A stretch of 64,000 bases of DNA from a virus (IMGVR_UViG_3300001688_000696), one strand, 5' to 3'; counted from the first letter of the stretch, positions 2,339 to 26,869 are shown. Translations and numbers: made by a program. The notes: a model not told the origin generated them from the sequence alone.

Positions 2339-2410
2339 ATAGACTCTGCGGCCTGAAAACCACCCGCTTCAGCAGCTGGTAGTTCACTAGAACAAAATAG
2401 AAAAAACATT

Positions 2411-2507
2411 GCAATTTCGTTGCAATATACAAGCAATATTGACATATGTCAATAGTGCTTGTATAATAAATAAAACAAACAAAAAACAGAAAAAAACAGG
2501 AGGGAAC
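2411..2507 (+). promoter_or_regulatory. promoter/operator cassette copy 1
   Basis: TTGCAA-N5-TTGCAA direct pair of palindromic hexamers. A ~34-bp near-perfect palindrome (acaagcaatattgacatatgtcaatagtgcttgt) is centred on catatg and contains the -35 TTGACA (2439-2444); TATAAT at 2463-2468. A-rich UTR and RBS caggagggaac lead to ATG 2508. About 87% identical to the copy at 3531-3630. Confidence 0.7.
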
Positions 2508-2942
2508 ATGGACACCACTAGTTTATGGCACGCACAGGATGATGAGGAAATTGAAGTAGGAAGTCTTCCTGTAGAGGAGGACTACTATGATGTCGACTGG
2601 GGGCAATTCGTCATCGCCACCCGCGATACGACAGCATTTGTCGGAGGCCACTCCGATGAAATTTACGGCTTCTGGGTTGTAGAAGCCGTTGATAAACTAG
2701 AGGATGCTGCTATTTTCCGCCATCCTGACTCTGCAAAGGCTTTCATCCGCGATAATGCGGACGAACTTAAGTGGGAGGGACTTGACCCTTCCACCCTCGA
2801 AATCTATCGGATTCCCTTGGCATATTTCTCTCTTATATATGCCAGAAAGAATAGCTGGAGTGAAGAGGATATTAAGAGTGCACTAGAAAGTCCATACTCC
2901 CCATGGTTTAAGGATGACCGTGATAGCAGTAATGTAGATTGA
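2508..2942 (+). CDS. hypothetical acidic protein (144 aa)
   Basis: ATG 2508 follows RBS ggaggg. The track ORF 2409..2942 is an N-terminal over-extension through the promoter. Confidence 0.65.
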   Translation: MDTTSLWHAQDDEEIEVGSLPVEEDYYDVDWGQFVIATRDTTAFVGGHSDEIYGFWVVEAVDKLEDAAIFRHPDSAKAFIRDNADELKWEGLDPSTLEIYRIPLAYFSLIYARKNSWSEEDIKSALESPYSPWFKDDRDSSNVD

Positions 2943-2974
2943 TTGTATAAAATTAATAAACAGCTCCAAACAAT

Positions 2975-3020
2975 AGCCCCCTTTACCAGATAATAAAAAC
3001 AGGTGGGGGGTTATTGTTTT
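2975..3020 (+). terminator. hairpin (gccccc...gggggg) + T-run, candidate terminator
   Basis: Seen in sequence; the loop is large. Confidence 0.4.
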
Positions 3021-3063
3021 AACTTTCAATCAGTATAAATAATTGCAATCTAGTTATAAAATT

Positions 3064-3175
3064 GCATGCTTGAATCAAAATTTATCCCATGAAGGGATTG
3101 AAACAGGAGCGACTTGCCCACTTCCAGCAGGCTGGCATGCTTGAATCAAAATTTATCCCATGAAGGGATTGAAAC
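3064..3175 (+). CRISPR. orphan mini-CRISPR array: two identical 41-nt repeats, one 30-nt spacer
   Basis: Repeat gcatgcttgaatcaaaatttatcccatgaagggattgaaac at 3064-3104 and 3135-3175. Spacer aggagcgacttgcccacttccagcaggctg at 3105-3134. The repeat has an internal hairpin (atccc-atgaa-gggat) and ends in ATTGAAAC, the canonical Cas6 crRNA 5' handle. AT-rich leader upstream; no cas genes in the window. Confidence 0.6.
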
Positions 3176-3242
3176 ATTGAATAAAAGAACTATTTTATAT
3201 AGTTTTTATCAGATTTCAACCAACAAAGAAGAGGAGCTTAAA

Positions 3243-3467
3243 ATGACTAAACAAGAATTAATCGAAATGTTAGCCAGTTTCCCTGATGATATGGAAGTAG
3301 TTTTTAGTTATCCTAGTGGGGATTACTGGCATTCTGTAATCACCAAAGAACTTCAAACTGTAGAATCCGGATTAATAGAATATAGTGCTTATCATAGTAG
3401 CAATATTCTATGTAGTAATCAGGATGAATTAACAGTTGATAATAGGGAAGTGATTATCATTTCATAG
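3243..3467 (+). CDS. small hypothetical protein (74 aa)
   Basis: ATG 3243 with RBS aagaggag. The upstream part of track ORF 3114..3467 reads through the CRISPR repeat and is unlikely to be coding. Confidence 0.45.
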   Translation: MTKQELIEMLASFPDDMEVVFSYPSGDYWHSVITKELQTVESGLIEYSAYHSSNILCSNQDELTVDNREVIIIS

Positions 3468-3530
3468 CTTACCATATTACAAGGAGTCTAAATTGATAGT
3501 TATATCAGTATGGGGAAATAGAACAAAAAA

Positions 3531-3630
3531 TTGCAATTTCGTTGCAATATACATGCACTATTGACATATGTAAATAGTGCATGTATAATAAGTACAGCAA
3601 ACAAAAAAAACAGGAAAAACAGGAGGGAAC
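3531..3630 (+). promoter_or_regulatory. promoter/operator cassette copy 2
   Basis: Same architecture as 2411-2507: TTGCAA-N5-TTGCAA, a ~34-bp near-palindrome (acatgcactattgacatatgtaaatagtgcatgt), -35 at 3561-3566, -10 at 3585-3590, and an identical RBS caggagggaac before ATG 3631. Arm substitutions relative to copy 1 preserve the dyad symmetry. Confidence 0.7.
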
Positions 3631-3912
3631 ATGAGCACCAATCTATGGAAAAAATACGCACCGGAAACACGCCCAGAGGATTGGACGGGCATGAGCGAAG
3701 CGGAAGTTCGCGGGGTCTTAGCCCAGGCGGGCGCAACCGATGAGGAAATTGAAGAAGAAATCGTCCTGTTCATGGACGAAATCCCCACCGCGCACACCTG
3801 CGCAAACTGCGGAAGAAGATTTTACACATATATAAATGACACCGCTCAAAGCGGTGAGTGTTTCGGATACCCCGAGTTATGCTGGTCTTGTGGAGTTGAG
3901 AACCAGGAGTAG
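3631..3912 (+). CDS. hypothetical Zn-ribbon protein (93 aa)
   Basis: ORF with cassette RBS. C-terminal CANCGRR...CWSCG motif. Confidence 0.65.
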   Translation: MSTNLWKKYAPETRPEDWTGMSEAEVRGVLAQAGATDEEIEEEIVLFMDEIPTAHTCANCGRRFYTYINDTAQSGECFGYPELCWSCGVENQE

Positions 3913-3989
3913 CATTCACCCCGAGCCGGGGCGGGTAATCCCCGGTATTGGTCCAGGAATTAGCCCTCGCCGGGGAGGCGGTCAGCCCC

Positions 3990-4125
3990 GGCACAAAAAA
4001 CGCTGTTCTGCTTGCCACTACATCAACCCCGATATGCCGCTTTCGATTCGTGAGTGGGATTGCCCCGTTTGTGGCGTTCACCATGGAAGCGCCCGAATCT
4101 ACGCCGAGGGAGTGAATGTAAGCCC
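3990..4125 (+). pseudogene. remnant of IS200/IS605-family TnpB C-terminal Zn-ribbon
   Basis: Frame-2 translation KKRCSACHYINPDMPLSIREWDCPVCGVHHGSARIYAEG resembles the TnpB OrfB Zn-ribbon signature (C..C...REW.C..CG..HDRD.NAA.NI). No upstream TnpB body. GC-rich hairpins follow (cccatcttcggatggg, ccacccgctaaagcgggtgg). Confidence 0.4.
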
Positions 4126-4214
4126 CATCTTCGGATGGGCCGTTCACGCCGAACTCGGAAGCCACCCGCTAAAGCGGGTGGTGCTTCACCGTCTGTTAGA
4201 TAGACAACTATGAA

Positions 4215-8370: not shown

Positions 8371-11300
8371 ATGAAAAAGACAGGGCGTTTCTTCACCTTT
8401 CTCGTTTTGCTTATTTTGGTAGTCTCCTGCCTGTCAGGTGTGCCAATGCCTGCCAATGCCGCTCCTTTACAGCAAGCGGGGGGAACCGTGATTATCGGGC
8501 CATCAGGCGGTGTGTGGACGTACATCAGCACTCCCAGTCCCAGCACAACCACATCGGAATGGTATCCGACTTCGGGAGCATATAAGGACTGGTATAAGCC
8601 TAGTTACGATGAATCGGGATGGTCGCTCAATCCGGCTACGGGCTGGTCAAAGCAATGGGATACTTTAGGATGGAGCGTCCCTAGCGGGTTATCCAAACTG
8701 GCTTACCATTACAGTTCTGACGCGAATTATTCCATTGGCTTGCATCGCCAGTGGTTTGCCATTCCTGCGGGACAGCGGGCGACATCGGTGAAGCTGGAAA
8801 TCTTCGCCGATGACATGTTCACCGCTCATTTGAACGGCGTAAAACTGTTTACCTATGGGGGCGCTCATTCAGAAACCTTCACCAACATTGACCCCAGCAT
8901 TTTGGCTGAAGGCGGCAACCTGCTGGCGATTTCGCTTTTGAACGCATCCGGCCCCGGCGGCCTTGTTTACAGGCTGACGGTGACATACGCCGACACGGTT
9001 CCCCCAACGTTGGGGTTTAGCGGAGCGGTCAGCAATACCTGGTACAACTCGAACCGAACGATTACGGCGGCATCTACTGACCATTATGGAATTGCCGAAC
9101 AATATGTGTCGGACACAAACGGCAACTGGCGCACCAGCTTTACAGCCACCCAAACCACTGACATCTGGTGTAGAGCAAAAGACAATAACGGCAACTGGGC
9201 AGGGCCGAGCATCTGCGGCAAGGTGCTGATTGACAAAACTGCGCCCACGCTTGGTTTTGCCGGTGCGACCAGCGGCAGTTGGTATAACTCCAACCGAACC
9301 ATCACACCGAATTCAAGCGATTCGGGCGGCTCGGGATTGAGCGCTCAATATGTCTCGGATACAAATGGAAACTGGCGTTCCAGCATCACGGTTTCATCGA
9401 CCACCACGATATACTGCTACGCTAAAGACAAGGCAGGGAATGAAAAAAGCGGCACTTGCGGTACAGTAAACATCGATAAATCCGCCCCATCTGCCGGGAA
9501 AAACCCAACGCTGAACCCATCTTCATGGACGAATGGAAACGTAACCGCCACGGTGACAAAAGGTGACGATACGGGAGGTTCAGGTTCAAAGGGAATTAAC
9601 TGTTCGACAACCAGCAGTGTTCCGACCACCAATACAACAGCGACTACTTGTTCCCAAACATTTACCAGCAATGGAACACTTTATTACCGTACAGTAGACA
9701 ACGCGGGGAACTGGAGTGCGGTTGGGTCTGTAGCAGTCACGAATATTGATAAAACAGCTCCTCAGTCGGGCAAAAACCTGACATTGAACCCATCCGCGTG
9801 GACAAATGGGAACGTGGTCGCCACAATTACCAAAGGGGATGATACTGGTGGGTCTGGCGCAAGAGGGGTGAACTGCGCAAAAACCAGTAATGTCCCCACG
9901 ACAGATACCACAGCTTCAACTTGTTCCCTGACGTTTACTGAAAACGGAACATTCTATTATCGCACGGTAGATAACGCCGGGAACTGGAGCGCAGTTGGTT
10001 CTGCGAATATCACCAATATCGACAAAATTCCCCCTCTGCCTTCGGGTGCCGTTTCTTCTGTCGCCCCGGAAGGCTGGACAAATCAAGATGTAATTGTGTC
10101 AGTTTCAACCGATGAAATAGAAGATGAACCGGGCGGCGTCACAATCTTCTGCAAGACAGATTTAGAAAGCTCCTATACCGAGGGGGGCGAAACGTGTGCA
10201 AAAACCTTCCCGCAAAACGGCGTATTCTCTTATTACTTGCAGGACGCAGCAGGAAACAAGAGTATTGTCCAAACGATTGCTGTTACTACGATTGATAAAA
10301 CACCACCGCAGGTTGCCTTCAGGTACCCGCGTTATACCGTTAGCGATGACAGCCTGATTATCACAGTAGATATAGGTGTAGACGATGAATCAGGTGCGAA
10401 AGGTATTGCCTGCGCCGCCGAAAGTGGGGCGGTTTCGATGGATGACACAGCCGCCCAAAGCTGTTCAATCACCGTCCCGCTAACTACGGCCGCTGTCCAT
10501 CTCTATGCCCGGACGCTGGACAATGCCGGGAATTGGAGTTCTGAAGGCATAGCAACTGTTCATCCCCAACTTGCACCCGCGCCCGTGCAGGAGGTTAATG
10601 TTTCTCAACCTGTACAAAGCGGCGTCTGGCAAAACCACAGCAACCAGCTTACATTCAGTTGGGAATCGCCTGACACTCTGGCGATTGGCTACGAGGTCTA
10701 TTGGGGGACAAATGAAAATGCTACCAGTGGGGTTCAGCAAACCGAAACCACCTTCCAGACCCCGGCGCTGACCGATGGTGTACCGCAGTATTTACGCATC
10801 AAAAGCATCGGGTCATACGGTTATGATTCGGACTGGCAAACTGTTTTTGTGTCGCTGTACGACACAAGCAAGCCGACCGGCATCACATCCGCAACGGAAA
10901 TCCACGGGGTTATTTCTTCGGTTGCGCAGTCGGAGATTGACCAGCCGGCCTTTGTTTGGAACCCGGCAACAGATGTGGCGGGCATACTCGGCTATCAAGT
11001 GTACTTCGGCAATAACCCCAATGGTACATCAACCACGCTGGTGACTACTCCCGAATTTACGGTTGAAAGCCCGGTTGAAAACACCGGCCTGTACTATCTG
11101 CGCCTGCGAAGTGTGGATAATGCGGGGAACTATTCCGATTGGAAGCTGGCGTTTATTTTCAATTACAAAGCAGCGGTTATCCCTAACGTCAGCTCGGCGC
11201 GAGAAATTAATGGTCTCACCAGCGATGTGTGGCAGAAGGGCGTGAATCGCCCGAGCTTTGTGTGGGATGTGCCAGATGAAAACATTACCGGTTATCGAGT

Positions 11301-12690
11301 TTACTTTGGGACGAACCCCAATGGTACATCCGATTACTTCACCAGCCAAACTGCGTATAGCCCATCTGAGCCTGTTACCAACACCGGCACATACTATCTG
11401 CGGGTGCAATCCGTATTATCATCGGGCAAGCATTCGGAATGGAATACGGTGTTCGTGTTCAAGTACGACATCAGCCGCCCCGACCCGGTAGCCTACCCGA
11501 TTACCGAGCTGACCGGTTCTCAGCCGAATATTTGCCAATCGGTGACACGCTCACCACACTTCGTCTGGGGAAAACCCGCAGATGTCGGAAGCGGAGTGGC
11601 GGGCTATAAATACCTGTGGACAAAAGACCCGAATGAGATTAATGAAGAAAAGGCTGCTTTTATCGGCGGGGAATCGCTGGTACTCGACAATATTGATGGC
11701 GGCATCCACTTTTTACTCCAAAAAGCATTTGACTATACCGGGAACGAGTCGGACTGGACAATCACCTATGATTTCTGCTACGCACTGGCAGAAGGTTATG
11801 TTTTTCCAACTGAGGATACCGAGATTACGGCGACCCTGCCGGATAGCAACAATCAGGTGACATTACAACTGCCGGCCGGTATGCACGATGACCCGTTGAA
11901 AATCATGGTTTATGACGGGACAGCGAACACGCCGCCCGTTGCTGATTTCCGAATGCTGGGTACTTCGTTCGGTCTGGAAGCCATTTCTGCTACGACTAAC
12001 GAAAACATCAAAAACTTCAACAAACCCTATACTATCCGGGTGACGTATACAGATGAAGATGTTGCTGATATTGACCCGACTACGCTGAAGATTTATTATC
12101 GCAACCCGGAAACCGGAGAATGGGAAGCCCTGCCGACATCTACAGTAGATACGGTCAATCGGGTCGTTACGGCGACGATTGACCATATGTCCGAATATGG
12201 TGTAATGGGGTTACGCCAGACGGAAAATAGCTACGCAGTTGTAAACGTTCAGGGACAAAGCACATTCAACATTGAGGCTGCGCCGGTTGATTTCGGTACA
12301 GTCAATCTGAATGGCGAACCGAAATACCTTGAAGTTGATTCGCCGGGCTGGACAGCCATTGACCCGACCGGACTTGGCAACGGCTGGACATTACAGGTGG
12401 CTGCTTCGGACTTCGTTTCTGGCGAACGTAGCCTGCCAGTTTCCAACCTTTCTATCCTGCTGGACAATACGACCGTGCAGGTCGTTGCAGGTAATGACTC
12501 CCCAGCTTCACTGGTGGAAAATTGGACGGCGTTGAACTATATCCCGCTACCAGTGCTGACCGCCCAAAATGGTAAGGGTATGGGGACGTATACTTTCACG
12601 CCTCGCTTCTCGCTGTACCTTCCGGCATCCACCTATGCGGGTGAATATCATGCGACCATCACCGTTACCATGATTGCAGGCGGTCAATAG
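8371..12690 (+). CDS. 1439-aa secreted repeat protein (Ig-like/FN3-like tandem domains)
   Basis: Signal peptide. Repeated ~90-aa modules IDKTAP...TGG SG...YYRTVDNAGNWS and FN3-like ...YxVYxGTN... modules. Possible adhesin or host-recognition fibre. Confidence 0.85.
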   Translation: MKKTGRFFTFLVLLILVVSCLSGVPMPANAAPLQQAGGTVIIGPSGGVWTYISTPSPSTTTSEWYPTSGAYKDWYKPSYDESGWSLNPATGWSKQWDTLGWSVPSGLSKLAYHYSSDANYSIGLHRQWFAIPAGQRATSVKLEIFADDMFTAHLNGVKLFTYGGAHSETFTNIDPSILAEGGNLLAISLLNASGPGGLVYRLTVTYADTVPPTLGFSGAVSNTWYNSNRTITAASTDHYGIAEQYVSDTNGNWRTSFTATQTTDIWCRAKDNNGNWAGPSICGKVLIDKTAPTLGFAGATSGSWYNSNRTITPNSSDSGGSGLSAQYVSDTNGNWRSSITVSSTTTIYCYAKDKAGNEKSGTCGTVNIDKSAPSAGKNPTLNPSSWTNGNVTATVTKGDDTGGSGSKGINCSTTSSVPTTNTTATTCSQTFTSNGTLYYRTVDNAGNWSAVGSVAVTNIDKTAPQSGKNLTLNPSAWTNGNVVATITKGDDTGGSGARGVNCAKTSNVPTTDTTASTCSLTFTENGTFYYRTVDNAGNWSAVGSANITNIDKIPPLPSGAVSSVAPEGWTNQDVIVSVSTDEIEDEPGGVTIFCKTDLESSYTEGGETCAKTFPQNGVFSYYLQDAAGNKSIVQTIAVTTIDKTPPQVAFRYPRYTVSDDSLIITVDIGVDDESGAKGIACAAESGAVSMDDTAAQSCSITVPLTTAAVHLYARTLDNAGNWSSEGIATVHPQLAPAPVQEVNVSQPVQSGVWQNHSNQLTFSWESPDTLAIGYEVYWGTNENATSGVQQTETTFQTPALTDGVPQYLRIKSIGSYGYDSDWQTVFVSLYDTSKPTGITSATEIHGVISSVAQSEIDQPAFVWNPATDVAGILGYQVYFGNNPNGTSTTLVTTPEFTVESPVENTGLYYLRLRSVDNAGNYSDWKLAFIFNYKAAVIPNVSSAREINGLTSDVWQKGVNRPSFVWDVPDENITGYRVYFGTNPNGTSDYFTSQTAYSPSEPVTNTGTYYLRVQSVLSSGKHSEWNTVFVFKYDISRPDPVAYPITELTGSQPNICQSVTRSPHFVWGKPADVGSGVAGYKYLWTKDPNEINEEKAAFIGGESLVLDNIDGGIHFLLQKAFDYTGNESDWTITYDFCYALAEGYVFPTEDTEITATLPDSNNQVTLQLPAGMHDDPLKIMVYDGTANTPPVADFRMLGTSFGLEAISATTNENIKNFNKPYTIRVTYTDEDVADIDPTTLKIYYRNPETGEWEALPTSTVDTVNRVVTATIDHMSEYGVMGLRQTENSYAVVNVQGQSTFNIEAAPVDFGTVNLNGEPKYLEVDSPGWTAIDPTGLGNGWTLQVAASDFVSGERSLPVSNLSILLDNTTVQVVAGNDSPASLVENWTALNYIPLPVLTAQNGKGMGTYTFTPRFSLYLPASTYAGEYHATITVTMIAGGQ

Positions 12691-25985: not shown

Positions 25986-26869
25986 CATCGAAACCTGTTG
26001 AAAAAATCCTTGTAGGTGGCGATGCCCGCACGGTGCAGACAGTAAACAAATTTTGTCTCTTGTTGCGGGTTGTCACGATTGCTAGTAGACAGGAAATAGA
26101 GACAGTACCGGCAATTCAAAGCCAATCCCCATTTGATATGTTTTAGGCAGGTCGTGTTATTTTCCTGCAAGGGGCAGCCCATTACAACCCAATCGTTCAG
26201 CGAATCATTGAAGTTGACTGCCCTCTGGTCAGCCATTGATGCCATCGTTACCCAGATTTGTTCTGGCATCGGATTGTTCAACCAGTTCATCATGCGCACC
26301 GGATTGGTGAGGATTTTGGCAAGTTCCTGACGGTCTGGAAAATGTCTAAGACGATGTAAATCGACCTCAATCGCCGGCCAACCGTTTTGCTCAATGATGC
26401 GAAGTTTTTCCCGCCCAACGCGGTGAGTGACGTAGATTTCAAGCAGCAGTGGTTCGCCAGCGGAAAAGATAACGATGTCCGGGACAATCCTACCCAGTCT
26501 GGTTTCCAGCGCCACTTCGTCAATTTTGACTTCGATTTTTTCGTCTTTACGAAAGGTGCGATATACCCGGCGAAAGTAAACGCTGCGACCAGAACGGGTG
26601 AAAAACGATAAAAATTCAATCCCGTATCCCGGAATAAAAATGGTTTTTTGCTGGCTGAGGATTTCTTTCGTCAGAAGGTGCAGTGTGGTTTCGCCAGCCC
26701 ATTCGCATTCCGGCGAATTGAGATGGGCGAAGTGATGGATTTTGATGCTCCCCTTACGGGCGACCAGCGGGGCGTTGCAGGTGGGGCAGATGCACTGACA
26801 GGCAGCTCCGCTTTCGACTTCAGAGATATGAACCAGCTTGCCGTTTTTTAGGCCATAGGGAATTTTCAT
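25967..26869 (-). CDS. CoiA-like competence protein family nuclease
   Basis: N-terminal CICPTCNAPLVARKGSIKIHHFAHL, matching the CoiA signature recalled from memory. The 3' end overlaps the tRNA-Glu 3' end by ~19 nt on the opposite strand. Confidence 0.6.
   Translation of the reverse strand: MKIPYGLKNGKLVHISEVESGAACQCICPTCNAPLVARKGSIKIHHFAHLNSPECEWAGETTLHLLTKEILSQQKTIFIPGYGIEFLSFFTRSGRSVYFRRVYRTFRKDEKIEVKIDEVALETRLGRIVPDIVIFSAGEPLLLEIYVTHRVGREKLRIIEQNGWPAIEVDLHRLRHFPDRQELAKILTNPVRMMNWLNNPMPEQIWVTMASMADQRAVNFNDSLNDWVVMGCPLQENNTTCLKHIKWGLALNCRYCLYFLSTSNRDNPQQETKFVYCLHRAGIATYKDFFNRFRCLPKRI

Follow-up and report, generated by a model that had tools for sequence, protein, structure and literature searches.

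Two perfect direct repeats of 42 nt, at 3064-3105 and 3135-3176 (GCATGCTTGAATCAAAATTTATCCCATGAAGGGATTGAAACA) and with starts that are 71 nt apart, lie among small genes of the same strand in a 64-kb window, by which we mean the whole stretch of DNA that was analysed. The features of the locus to which we refer throughout are the following.

2341-4189, + strand: variable hot-spot insertion of 1,849 bp that includes both cassettes and the TnpB remnant; absent from related strains L001 and L003
2393-3515, + strand: strain-specific cassette of 1,122-1,123 bp; absent from strain L002 (a 296-kb ENA contig)
2439-2467, + strand: promoter A, a perfect TTGACA-17-TATAAT within a 40-nt palindrome
2508-2942, + strand: putative 144-aa ORF of the same cassette, 5' of the array
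2968-3019, + strand: terminator-like hairpin, 3' of the 144-aa gene and 48 nt 5' of repeat 1
3020-3067, + strand: AT-rich DNA (21% GC) that separates repeat 1 from the terminator, putative promoter or leader
3064-3176, + strand: whole repeat-spacer-repeat unit as delimited by the 42-nt identity (42-nt repeat family D2)
3068-3104, + strand: CRISPR repeat 1 (37 nt), GCTTGAATCAAAATTTATCCCATGAAGGGATTGAAAC, a 35/37 match to the type I-D repeat of MAG H61_600
3105-3138, + strand: spacer (34 nt), AGGAGCGACTTGCCCACTTCCAGCAGGCTGGCAT, 61.8% GC, of a length also found among the MAG spacers (34-39 nt)
3139-3175, + strand: CRISPR repeat 2 (37 nt), identical to repeat 1
3243-3467, + strand: 74-aa ORF, 32% GC, 67 nt 3' of repeat 2
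3561-3589, + strand: promoter B, second copy of promoter A, 87% identical over 94 nt
3836-4213, + strand: C-terminal remnant of a truncated TnpB (IS605 family) with a weak Cas12f1-like_TNB match

The two 42-nt stretches are separated by 29 unique nucleotides. A 21-nt core of the repeat occurs at just these two sites in the 64-kb window, even when up to 3 mismatches are allowed, and at none in 100 shuffles. No further units were found at up to 10 substitutions in the window or in 12 loci of related strains, and the pair belongs to no larger repeat family, in particular to none of a longer, non-CRISPR kind. A preliminary description of this DNA had given repeats of 41 nt around a spacer of 30 nt; the two identical copies and the unique spacer stand, with lengths that have to be revised, as the identity spans 42 nt and homology to a cas-linked MAG array (see below) sets the repeat at 37 nt and the spacer at 34 nt. 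Each repeat folds into a hairpin with a 5-bp stem, ATCCC/GGGAT, and the loop ATGAA (-5.9 kcal/mol from folding), directly followed by TGAAAC, and terminates in the 8-nt handle ATTGAAAC, so that both the hairpin and the 3' end are as originally described. The unit is the minimal case of a CRISPR array, defined by at least two near-identical repeats of 23-47 nt and a unique spacer, and has the complete anatomy of a crRNA precursor: a handle donor, a native-length spacer and, 3' of it, a repeat that supplies the hairpin, all on the + strand, so that the crRNA sense is that of the flanking genes. A single spacer and a 64-kb window devoid of cas genes also fit the definition of a mini-array, with 1-2 spacers. 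In Rfam the repeat has a weak match to CRISPR-DR10 (17.7 bits, with a gathering score of 39), and none of the CRISPR-DR families reaches its gathering score.

The identity of the two units exceeds the 37-nt repeat by GCAT on the 5' side (3064-3067 and 3135-3138) and by a single A on the 3' side (3105 and 3176). The MAG array offers no precedent for this extra identity, as it has no conserved bases beyond the 37 nt, and precise integration by Cas1-Cas2 would not yield identity beyond the repeat. We estimate a chance probability of about 1 in 1000, and the additional bases may reflect either a microhomology-mediated event or coincidence. The first GCAT sits within an ATTGCAT motif that is related to the ATTGCAAT motifs found 5' of both cassette promoters.

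The exact 21-nt core is absent from IMG/VR, from 185,579 GTDB species genomes and from the JGI metagenomes. A degenerate pattern of two consecutive TCCC-V-N4-GGGATTGAAAC units, the sole pattern that recovers a related array, returned 42 loci, mostly arrays in Chloroflexota genome bins. The best of these, on contig DAOUAC010000088.1 of the Anaerolineaceae MAG H61_600, has the repeat GCTTGAATCAAAATCTATCCCATAAAGGGATTGAAAC, which agrees with the window repeat at 35 of 37 positions, and the second-best repeat among the 42 loci agrees at 26 of 36. If only those positions left free by the search pattern are counted, 20 of 22 agree, with a binomial p of 1.2e-10 or, corrected for the 42 loci, 5e-9. Relative to the MAG repeat, the window repeat has T instead of C at position 15 and G instead of A in the loop; neither substitution touches the stem or the 8-nt handle, and the hairpin is retained. 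In type I and type III systems it is the stem and the handle that are read by Cas6 and by the 5'-handle pocket of Cascade.

The search for a host CRISPR match that had been proposed for this repeat has thus led to a bona fide cas-linked array, matching at 35/37. The H61_600 array has 35 repeats and a degenerate terminal repeat, spacers of 34-39 nt and periods of about 71-76 nt, the shortest of which equals the 71-nt period in the window. It is located directly 3' of csc2-csc1-cas6-cas4-cas1-cas2 and of a leader of ~290 nt that comes after these genes, and its cas genes are on the strand where the repeat ends in ATTGAAAC, the same orientation as for the window unit. NCBIfam models identify Csc2/Cas7d (6.5e-83), Csc1/Cas5d (3.8e-46), a weak Cas6, and also Cas4 and Cas2; Cas1 scores 1.8e-112 against the type I-D model, its 375.6 bits falling just under the cutoff of 385, and cas10d and cas3 lie beyond the end of the contig. 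The traits of the type I-D repeat family are present in the window repeat, namely a 3' hairpin and an 8-nt handle (AUUGAAAC or ACUGAAAC), with the association to Csc1/Csc2 made via one MAG. Judged from sequence, the window repeat is most likely a member of the type I-D family of repeats from an Anaerolineaceae (Chloroflexota) host. The host system had been expected to be of type I-B or III; the matching system is instead of type I-D (Csc1/Csc2). Since the exact repeat variant occurs in no genome or metagenome that was searched, the link to a host is the 35/37 similarity to a single MAG.

Neither the 34 spacers of H61_600 nor the 825 spacers from all fetched arrays produced more than 12-17-nt chance matches to the window and its relatives, and the GC contents of the window and the MAG contig are 47.6% and 58%, respectively. 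Host clues sought by tblastn against plasmids, with the TnpB of strain L006 and a PAS-GGDEF protein as queries, gave distant and uninformative matches only. A cyanobacterial host was suggested by the likeness of stem and handle to cyanobacterial repeats and by HIP1 in IMG/VR matches; it was rejected, as the window contains no HIP1 or GATC and the close repeat match is in Chloroflexota.

Pfam scans of 78 predicted ORFs, covering ~87% of the 64-kb window, detect no Cas families, and tblastn of six H61_600 Cas proteins against the window gives a best E of 0.08, in line with the preliminary description of an element that has no cas gene in the 64 kb. The sole Cas-like signal in the window is a sub-threshold match to the Cas12f/TnpB zinc ribbon in the TnpB remnant at 3836-4213. 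A PADLOC scan of all ORFs gave output dominated by methyltransferase models that is uninformative on cas. The claim of an orphan mini-CRISPR array on an element without cas genes is strengthened by the existence of a near-identical, cas-adjacent repeat in H61_600 (35/37).

The stretch between a 421-aa and a 316-aa gene, in which the unit is found, is polymorphic, with flanks that are 99.8-99.9% identical to those of relatives. Among strains that are 99.8% identical this hot spot is empty or contains one or two cassettes; in L001 and L003 its flanks are 99.84-99.87% identical to the window, and several short-read contigs end within 2341-4189. The cassette with the unit reads, in order, promoter A, 144-aa gene, terminator, 48 nt at 21% GC, mini-array and 74-aa gene, and its edges are two copies of a promoter region of ~126 nt. 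The single promoter of L002 is a chimera whose left part corresponds to that of promoter A and whose right part to that of promoter B, which fits a deletion or insertion by recombination between the promoter-region copies. Because it is missing from most strains, the cassette is dispensable.

A promoter module of 94 nt is duplicated at 2403-2496 and 3525-3618 with 87% identity; its palindrome also provides a near-consensus promoter on the opposite strand, and ATTGCAAT-N4-TTGCAAT is located 5' of the module. It looks like an operator-controlled module that heads each small-gene cassette and serves as a substrate of recombination for the gain and loss of cassettes. Promoter A may drive the 144-aa gene and, via read-through, the array. 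Between the two, the hairpin at 2968-3019 (-24.9 kcal/mol, z = -3.7) has ~18 paired bases and is followed by UUUUAA. The stretch from 3020 to 3067 holds ATTGCAAT and ATTGCAT motifs (family D5), which resemble those 5' of the two cassette promoters, as well as TATAAAAT at 3055-3062. A promoter scan called no sigma-70-like site on the + strand of this stretch, and the sequence upstream of the unit has no homology to the H61_600 leader. Of the AT-rich leader that had been proposed here, what stands is the base composition of 3020-3067 (21% GC); the stretch has no homology to the MAG leader and no clear + strand promoter.

The genes on either side of the unit offer little by way of homology. The 144-aa ORF has no Pfam, PHROG or PDB match, and no record has its exact product. 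Searched against 5.8 billion clustered proteins, the 74-aa protein matches only its own entry, from a single 399,701-bp JGI contig from which the window probably derives; its N-terminus has a weak match to PHROG 5861 and there is one weak N-terminal match in IMG/VR, with none in Pfam or PDB for the ORF. At 32.5% GC, 2943-3520 lies well below the window as a whole (47.6%) and the MAG contig (58%). Further downstream, the TnpB remnant has a longer, less truncated reading in L002 and is unrelated to the TnpB of L006. An end-like hairpin at 4159-4189 has a similar counterpart at 2357-2387 (repeat D4, inverted repeat I5).

The spacer had been expected to target a rival element, and this expectation is not borne out in the phage, plasmid, IMG/VR and JGI collections or in the relatives that were searched. 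The window, 100 loci that were fetched (838 kb) and the neighbouring genes of close strains (~10 kb on either side of the window) contain no protospacer. Three overlapping exact seeds gave five 17-mer matches in IMG/VR, agreeing at 18-25 of 34 positions, as expected by chance; one 22-mer seed gave none in the JGI metagenomes, and the best BLAST match in the phage and plasmid collections has an E of 0.08, in an ABC-transporter gene. Since these were exact-seed scans and BLAST searches, targets with at least 2 mismatches or outside the collections would be missed. Against the window itself the spacer has six scattered matches of 10-11 nt, where chance predicts ~3 ten-mers and 0.7 eleven-mers. 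The spacers of known phage mini-arrays mostly point to neighbouring genes of close relatives (PMC6858448, PMC11656645); the match to a competing element that is expected of such spacers is absent from the relatives and collections searched, and it is the target that would make the case biologically telling.

The spacer is 61.8% GC, the same value as the average MAG spacer (61.8%, sd 8.7), and just 9% of the element's own 34-mers are as GC-rich. This gives a weak hint that the unit or the spacer came from a host-type array, or that the target is GC-rich, and, again weakly, it makes a sister strain of this element, itself 48% GC, a slightly less likely target.

The window is part of an element of ~300-400 kb in which nearly all genes are without known relatives. 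It is found in an ENA contig of 295,894 bp (L002) and in many Logan contigs, with contigs of the element of 296 and 400 kb, and has no match in IMG/VR or in the phage collection. With its large ORFs scanned against PHROG, Pfam and PDB, the window is almost entirely ORFan; no capsid, terminase, virion or conjugation genes were seen in the window, where PHROG matches are almost absent, and the 10 kb beyond it in relatives contain no decisive viral hallmark. Ten tRNA genes form two clusters, at 21502-22062 and 25682-25986. Isoacceptors are repeated, with Phe(GAA) twice, Ser with GGA, GCT, TGA and CGA, and Glu with TTC three times and CTC once, a set that is unusual for a mobile element. The window encodes four N6/N4 DNA methylases, along with a PAS-GGDEF and a CAP-domain protein. 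GATC does not occur in the 64 kb, where ~245 sites are expected, nor in a further 63 kb of related strains (L001, L002, L100), and has a normal frequency in the MAG contig of the candidate host. GGCC, CGCG, CTGCAG, GGCGCC, CAGCTG, GATATC and CCCGGG are also strongly depleted in the window. The absence of GATC and the depleted sites constitute a strong signature of restriction avoidance. The 10 tRNA genes, the 4 methylases and the lack of GATC give the element the look of a virus under pressure from defence systems, and the carrier is probably a giant phage, as judged from the tRNAs, methylases, missing GATC, ORFans, contig sizes and an RNA ligase; the alternative is a megaplasmid.

That ligase, a T4-type RNA ligase 1, is encoded in the region 5' of the window in relatives (L001/L002 1-9827), together with an ADP-ribosylglycohydrolase, a dual-specificity phosphatase and an ADP-ribosyl-exotoxin-like protein that varies between strains, and this region looks like one of counter-defence or host takeover. 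Within the window, 8371-12690 is a 1,439-aa ORF with no Pfam, PHROGs or PDB match, and the internal DNA repeats that it contains (9469-10027 and 10989-11330, with periods of ~273-300 nt) suggest a repetitive surface or fibre protein.

The anatomy of the unit, its homology to a type I-D array in the same orientation, the lack of cas genes in the window and its presence in some strains and absence in others are, we think, probably best explained by a mini-array on a giant mobile element, itself probably viral, that has no cas genes in 64 kb and uses the type I-D Cas proteins of its host. How the unit would be expressed, processed and loaded, and what it would target, we infer along the following lines. 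A + strand transcript of the unit would arise by read-through from the strong cassette promoter or start in the AT-rich stretch immediately 5', and host Cas6 would then cleave both repeats on the 3' side of the base of the ATCCC/GGGAT hairpin. The predicted product is one mature crRNA in which the 8-nt 5' handle AUUGAAAC precedes the 34-nt spacer and repeat 2 contributes the hairpin. Loaded with this crRNA, the type I-D Cascade of the host would destroy DNA with a matching protospacer, and the target DNA, by analogy with known viral mini-arrays, would be that of a competing mobile element in the same cell. The weak points of this explanation are that no promoter is detected after the terminator, that no target was found and that the host link is to one MAG.

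It is instructive to compare the unit with systems that have been described. Relative to the H61_600 I-D array (DAOUAC010000088.1) it has the same 37-nt repeat length, stem, loop length, ATTGAAAC handle and orientation, with a period of 71-73 nt; the MAG array differs in that it has 35 repeats, a ~290-nt leader and cas genes, whereas the window has 2 repeats, lacks cas genes and shows no relation to the MAG locus in its upstream sequence. Chenard et al. in 2016, for cyanophage N-1, and Al-Shayeb et al. in 2020, for huge phages, reportedly described host-type arrays, some of them without cas genes. The window unit resembles these in that a large phage carries a host-type array with a repeat hairpin followed by a GAAAC tail; those arrays usually have several spacers, whereas here there is one, and the inferred host is from the Anaerolineaceae.

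Viral mini-arrays with neither cas genes nor host-like leaders are documented (PMC6858448, PMC11656645), and the borrowing of Cas proteins has been shown for SPV1/SPV2 and inferred for many phages (PMC6858448; PMC11656645). The window unit shares with those of the Saccharolobus viruses SPV1/SPV2 (Medvedeva et al. 2019, PMC6858448) and of phages (PMC11656645) a single spacer, two host-type repeats, an intergenic location, an element that lacks cas genes and a presence that varies between close strains. It also has no host-like leader, and the lack of leader homology fits phage mini-arrays, which are typically without one. The unit differs from SPV1/SPV2 and the phage mini-arrays in that its repeat agrees with the nearest host array at 35/37 and is not identical, in that no target was found for its spacer, and in its carrier, a giant Chloroflexota-linked element of ~300-400 kb for which the borrowed system would be type I-D.

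Related units occur elsewhere in IMG/VR. Two contigs, L039 and L044, have two-repeat arrays with related repeats and the same 71-nt period, and L041 has five repeats. Many viral contigs among L009-L048 carry solitary ATCCC-N5-GGGATTGAAAC units, including conserved ones that end in CTAACTTAATCCCTACTAGGGATTGAAAC in ten contigs and in CTACAACAATCCCTCGGTGGGATTGAAAC in six. We regard the solitary units as candidate RNA anti-CRISPRs and the multi-repeat units as candidate mini-arrays.

The main rival to a mini-array is a Racr-like RNA anti-CRISPR decoy, in which repeat transcripts bind Cas6 and Cas7d of the host, the resulting dead-end complexes protect the element from type I-D immunity and the spacer is irrelevant. 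Viral repeat mimics on elements without cas genes do inhibit CRISPR-Cas, with candidates for almost all types (PMC10651486), and the many solitary ATCCC...GGGATTGAAAC units of IMG/VR viral contigs, a spacer without a target in the collections searched and the surroundings, which resemble those of counter-defence genes (an RNA ligase and ADP-ribosyl enzymes just 5' in relatives, DNA methylases in the window), are all consistent with such a role. As with Racrs and solitary repeat units (Camara-Wilpert et al. 2023, PMC10651486), there is a mimic of a host repeat, an element lacking cas genes and a counter-defence-rich region; the window differs in that a second full repeat and a native-length spacer are present, and no promoter is detected directly upstream. 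Racrs are defined as solitary, and SRUFinder assigns two-repeat units to mini-arrays (PMC10651486); a solitary unit has no second repeat within ~100 bp, and here the second repeat is 71 nt away. Moreover, RacrIF1 supplied with a second repeat and a spacer becomes a working crRNA (PMC10651486), and a crRNA with a non-matching spacer forms a normal, not an aberrant, complex. A spacer with a full repeat on each side yields a complete crRNA, and perfect repeats at the native period with a native-length spacer exceed what a mere decoy needs, and we therefore consider a decoy unlikely, if the strongest of the alternatives. A unit that is simply passenger DNA, that is, a repeat-spacer-repeat fragment recombined from a host array with no selected function, ranks lower and seems to us rather improbable. 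It would account for a spacer with the mean GC content of the MAG spacers in an element with 9% of its 34-mers that GC-rich, for a cassette that is missing from nearly identical strains, for the lack of a detected promoter or leader homology and for a location within a recombination hot spot with an IS remnant. Because the flanks are 21-33% GC, as opposed to 58% for the MAG contig, only the 108-nt unit could be host-derived; both repeats are intact and identical and their orientation matches that of the flanking genes. Phage mini-arrays are believed to acquire their spacers when they recombine with arrays of the host, and capture from a host array is also the proposed route for functional ones (PMC6858448), so that such an origin is compatible with function.

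A still less probable possibility is that the product is a regulatory, crRNA-like RNA (CreA/crlRNA) that guides Cascade to a partly matching promoter and represses a gene without cleavage. Such RNAs are reported to have repeat-flanked pseudo-spacers and can be orphan (bioRxiv 10.1101/2024.12.27.630466, 10.1101/2024.01.05.574328), and a small gene, the 74-aa ORF, is directly downstream; however, the repeats are perfect rather than degenerate and no partial match of the spacer is found near any promoter of the window, only 10-11-mers at the level of chance. We also hardly credit that the repeats are not CRISPR at all and arose by chance tandem duplication, as a pair of minus-strand terminators or as transposon-end hairpins. 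A scan does call both hairpins terminator-like on the minus strand, the identity exceeds the 37-nt repeat and the locus is inside a decayed IS605/TnpB element; against this stand the 35/37 match to a cas-linked repeat, with a chance of ~5e-9, flanking genes on the + strand, which leave minus-strand terminators with nothing obvious to terminate, and the IS end-like hairpins at 2357-2387 and 4159-4189, which bear no sequence relation to the repeat. The repeat homology effectively rules out an origin other than CRISPR. Quite another possibility concerns what the guide would do. A small, self-contained guide cassette, with its crRNA unit, small genes and a strong promoter under operator control, might move between strains of a giant Chloroflexota virus by promoter-repeat recombination in an old TnpB/IS605 landing site, its host-like, GC-rich spacer aiming the host I-D Cascade and nuclease at DNA of the host or of a resident prophage, for takeover or removal of a defence island, and not at a sister virus; we regard this as doubtful, less so than a CreA-like role and more so than passenger DNA.

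The mini-array that we favour would add to a phenomenon that is already documented as "borrowed immunity", and its value lies in the host clue and the strain polymorphism and not in a new mechanism. Its presence in one strain and absence from strains that are 99.8% identical amount to a natural experiment. The repeat provides a testable host, an Anaerolineaceae (Chloroflexota) with a type I-D system, for a 300-400 kb ORFan element to which a host would otherwise be very hard to assign and, if the unit is functional, the strategy of a mini-array with borrowed Cas proteins on a giant element would be linked to type I-D and to the Chloroflexota.
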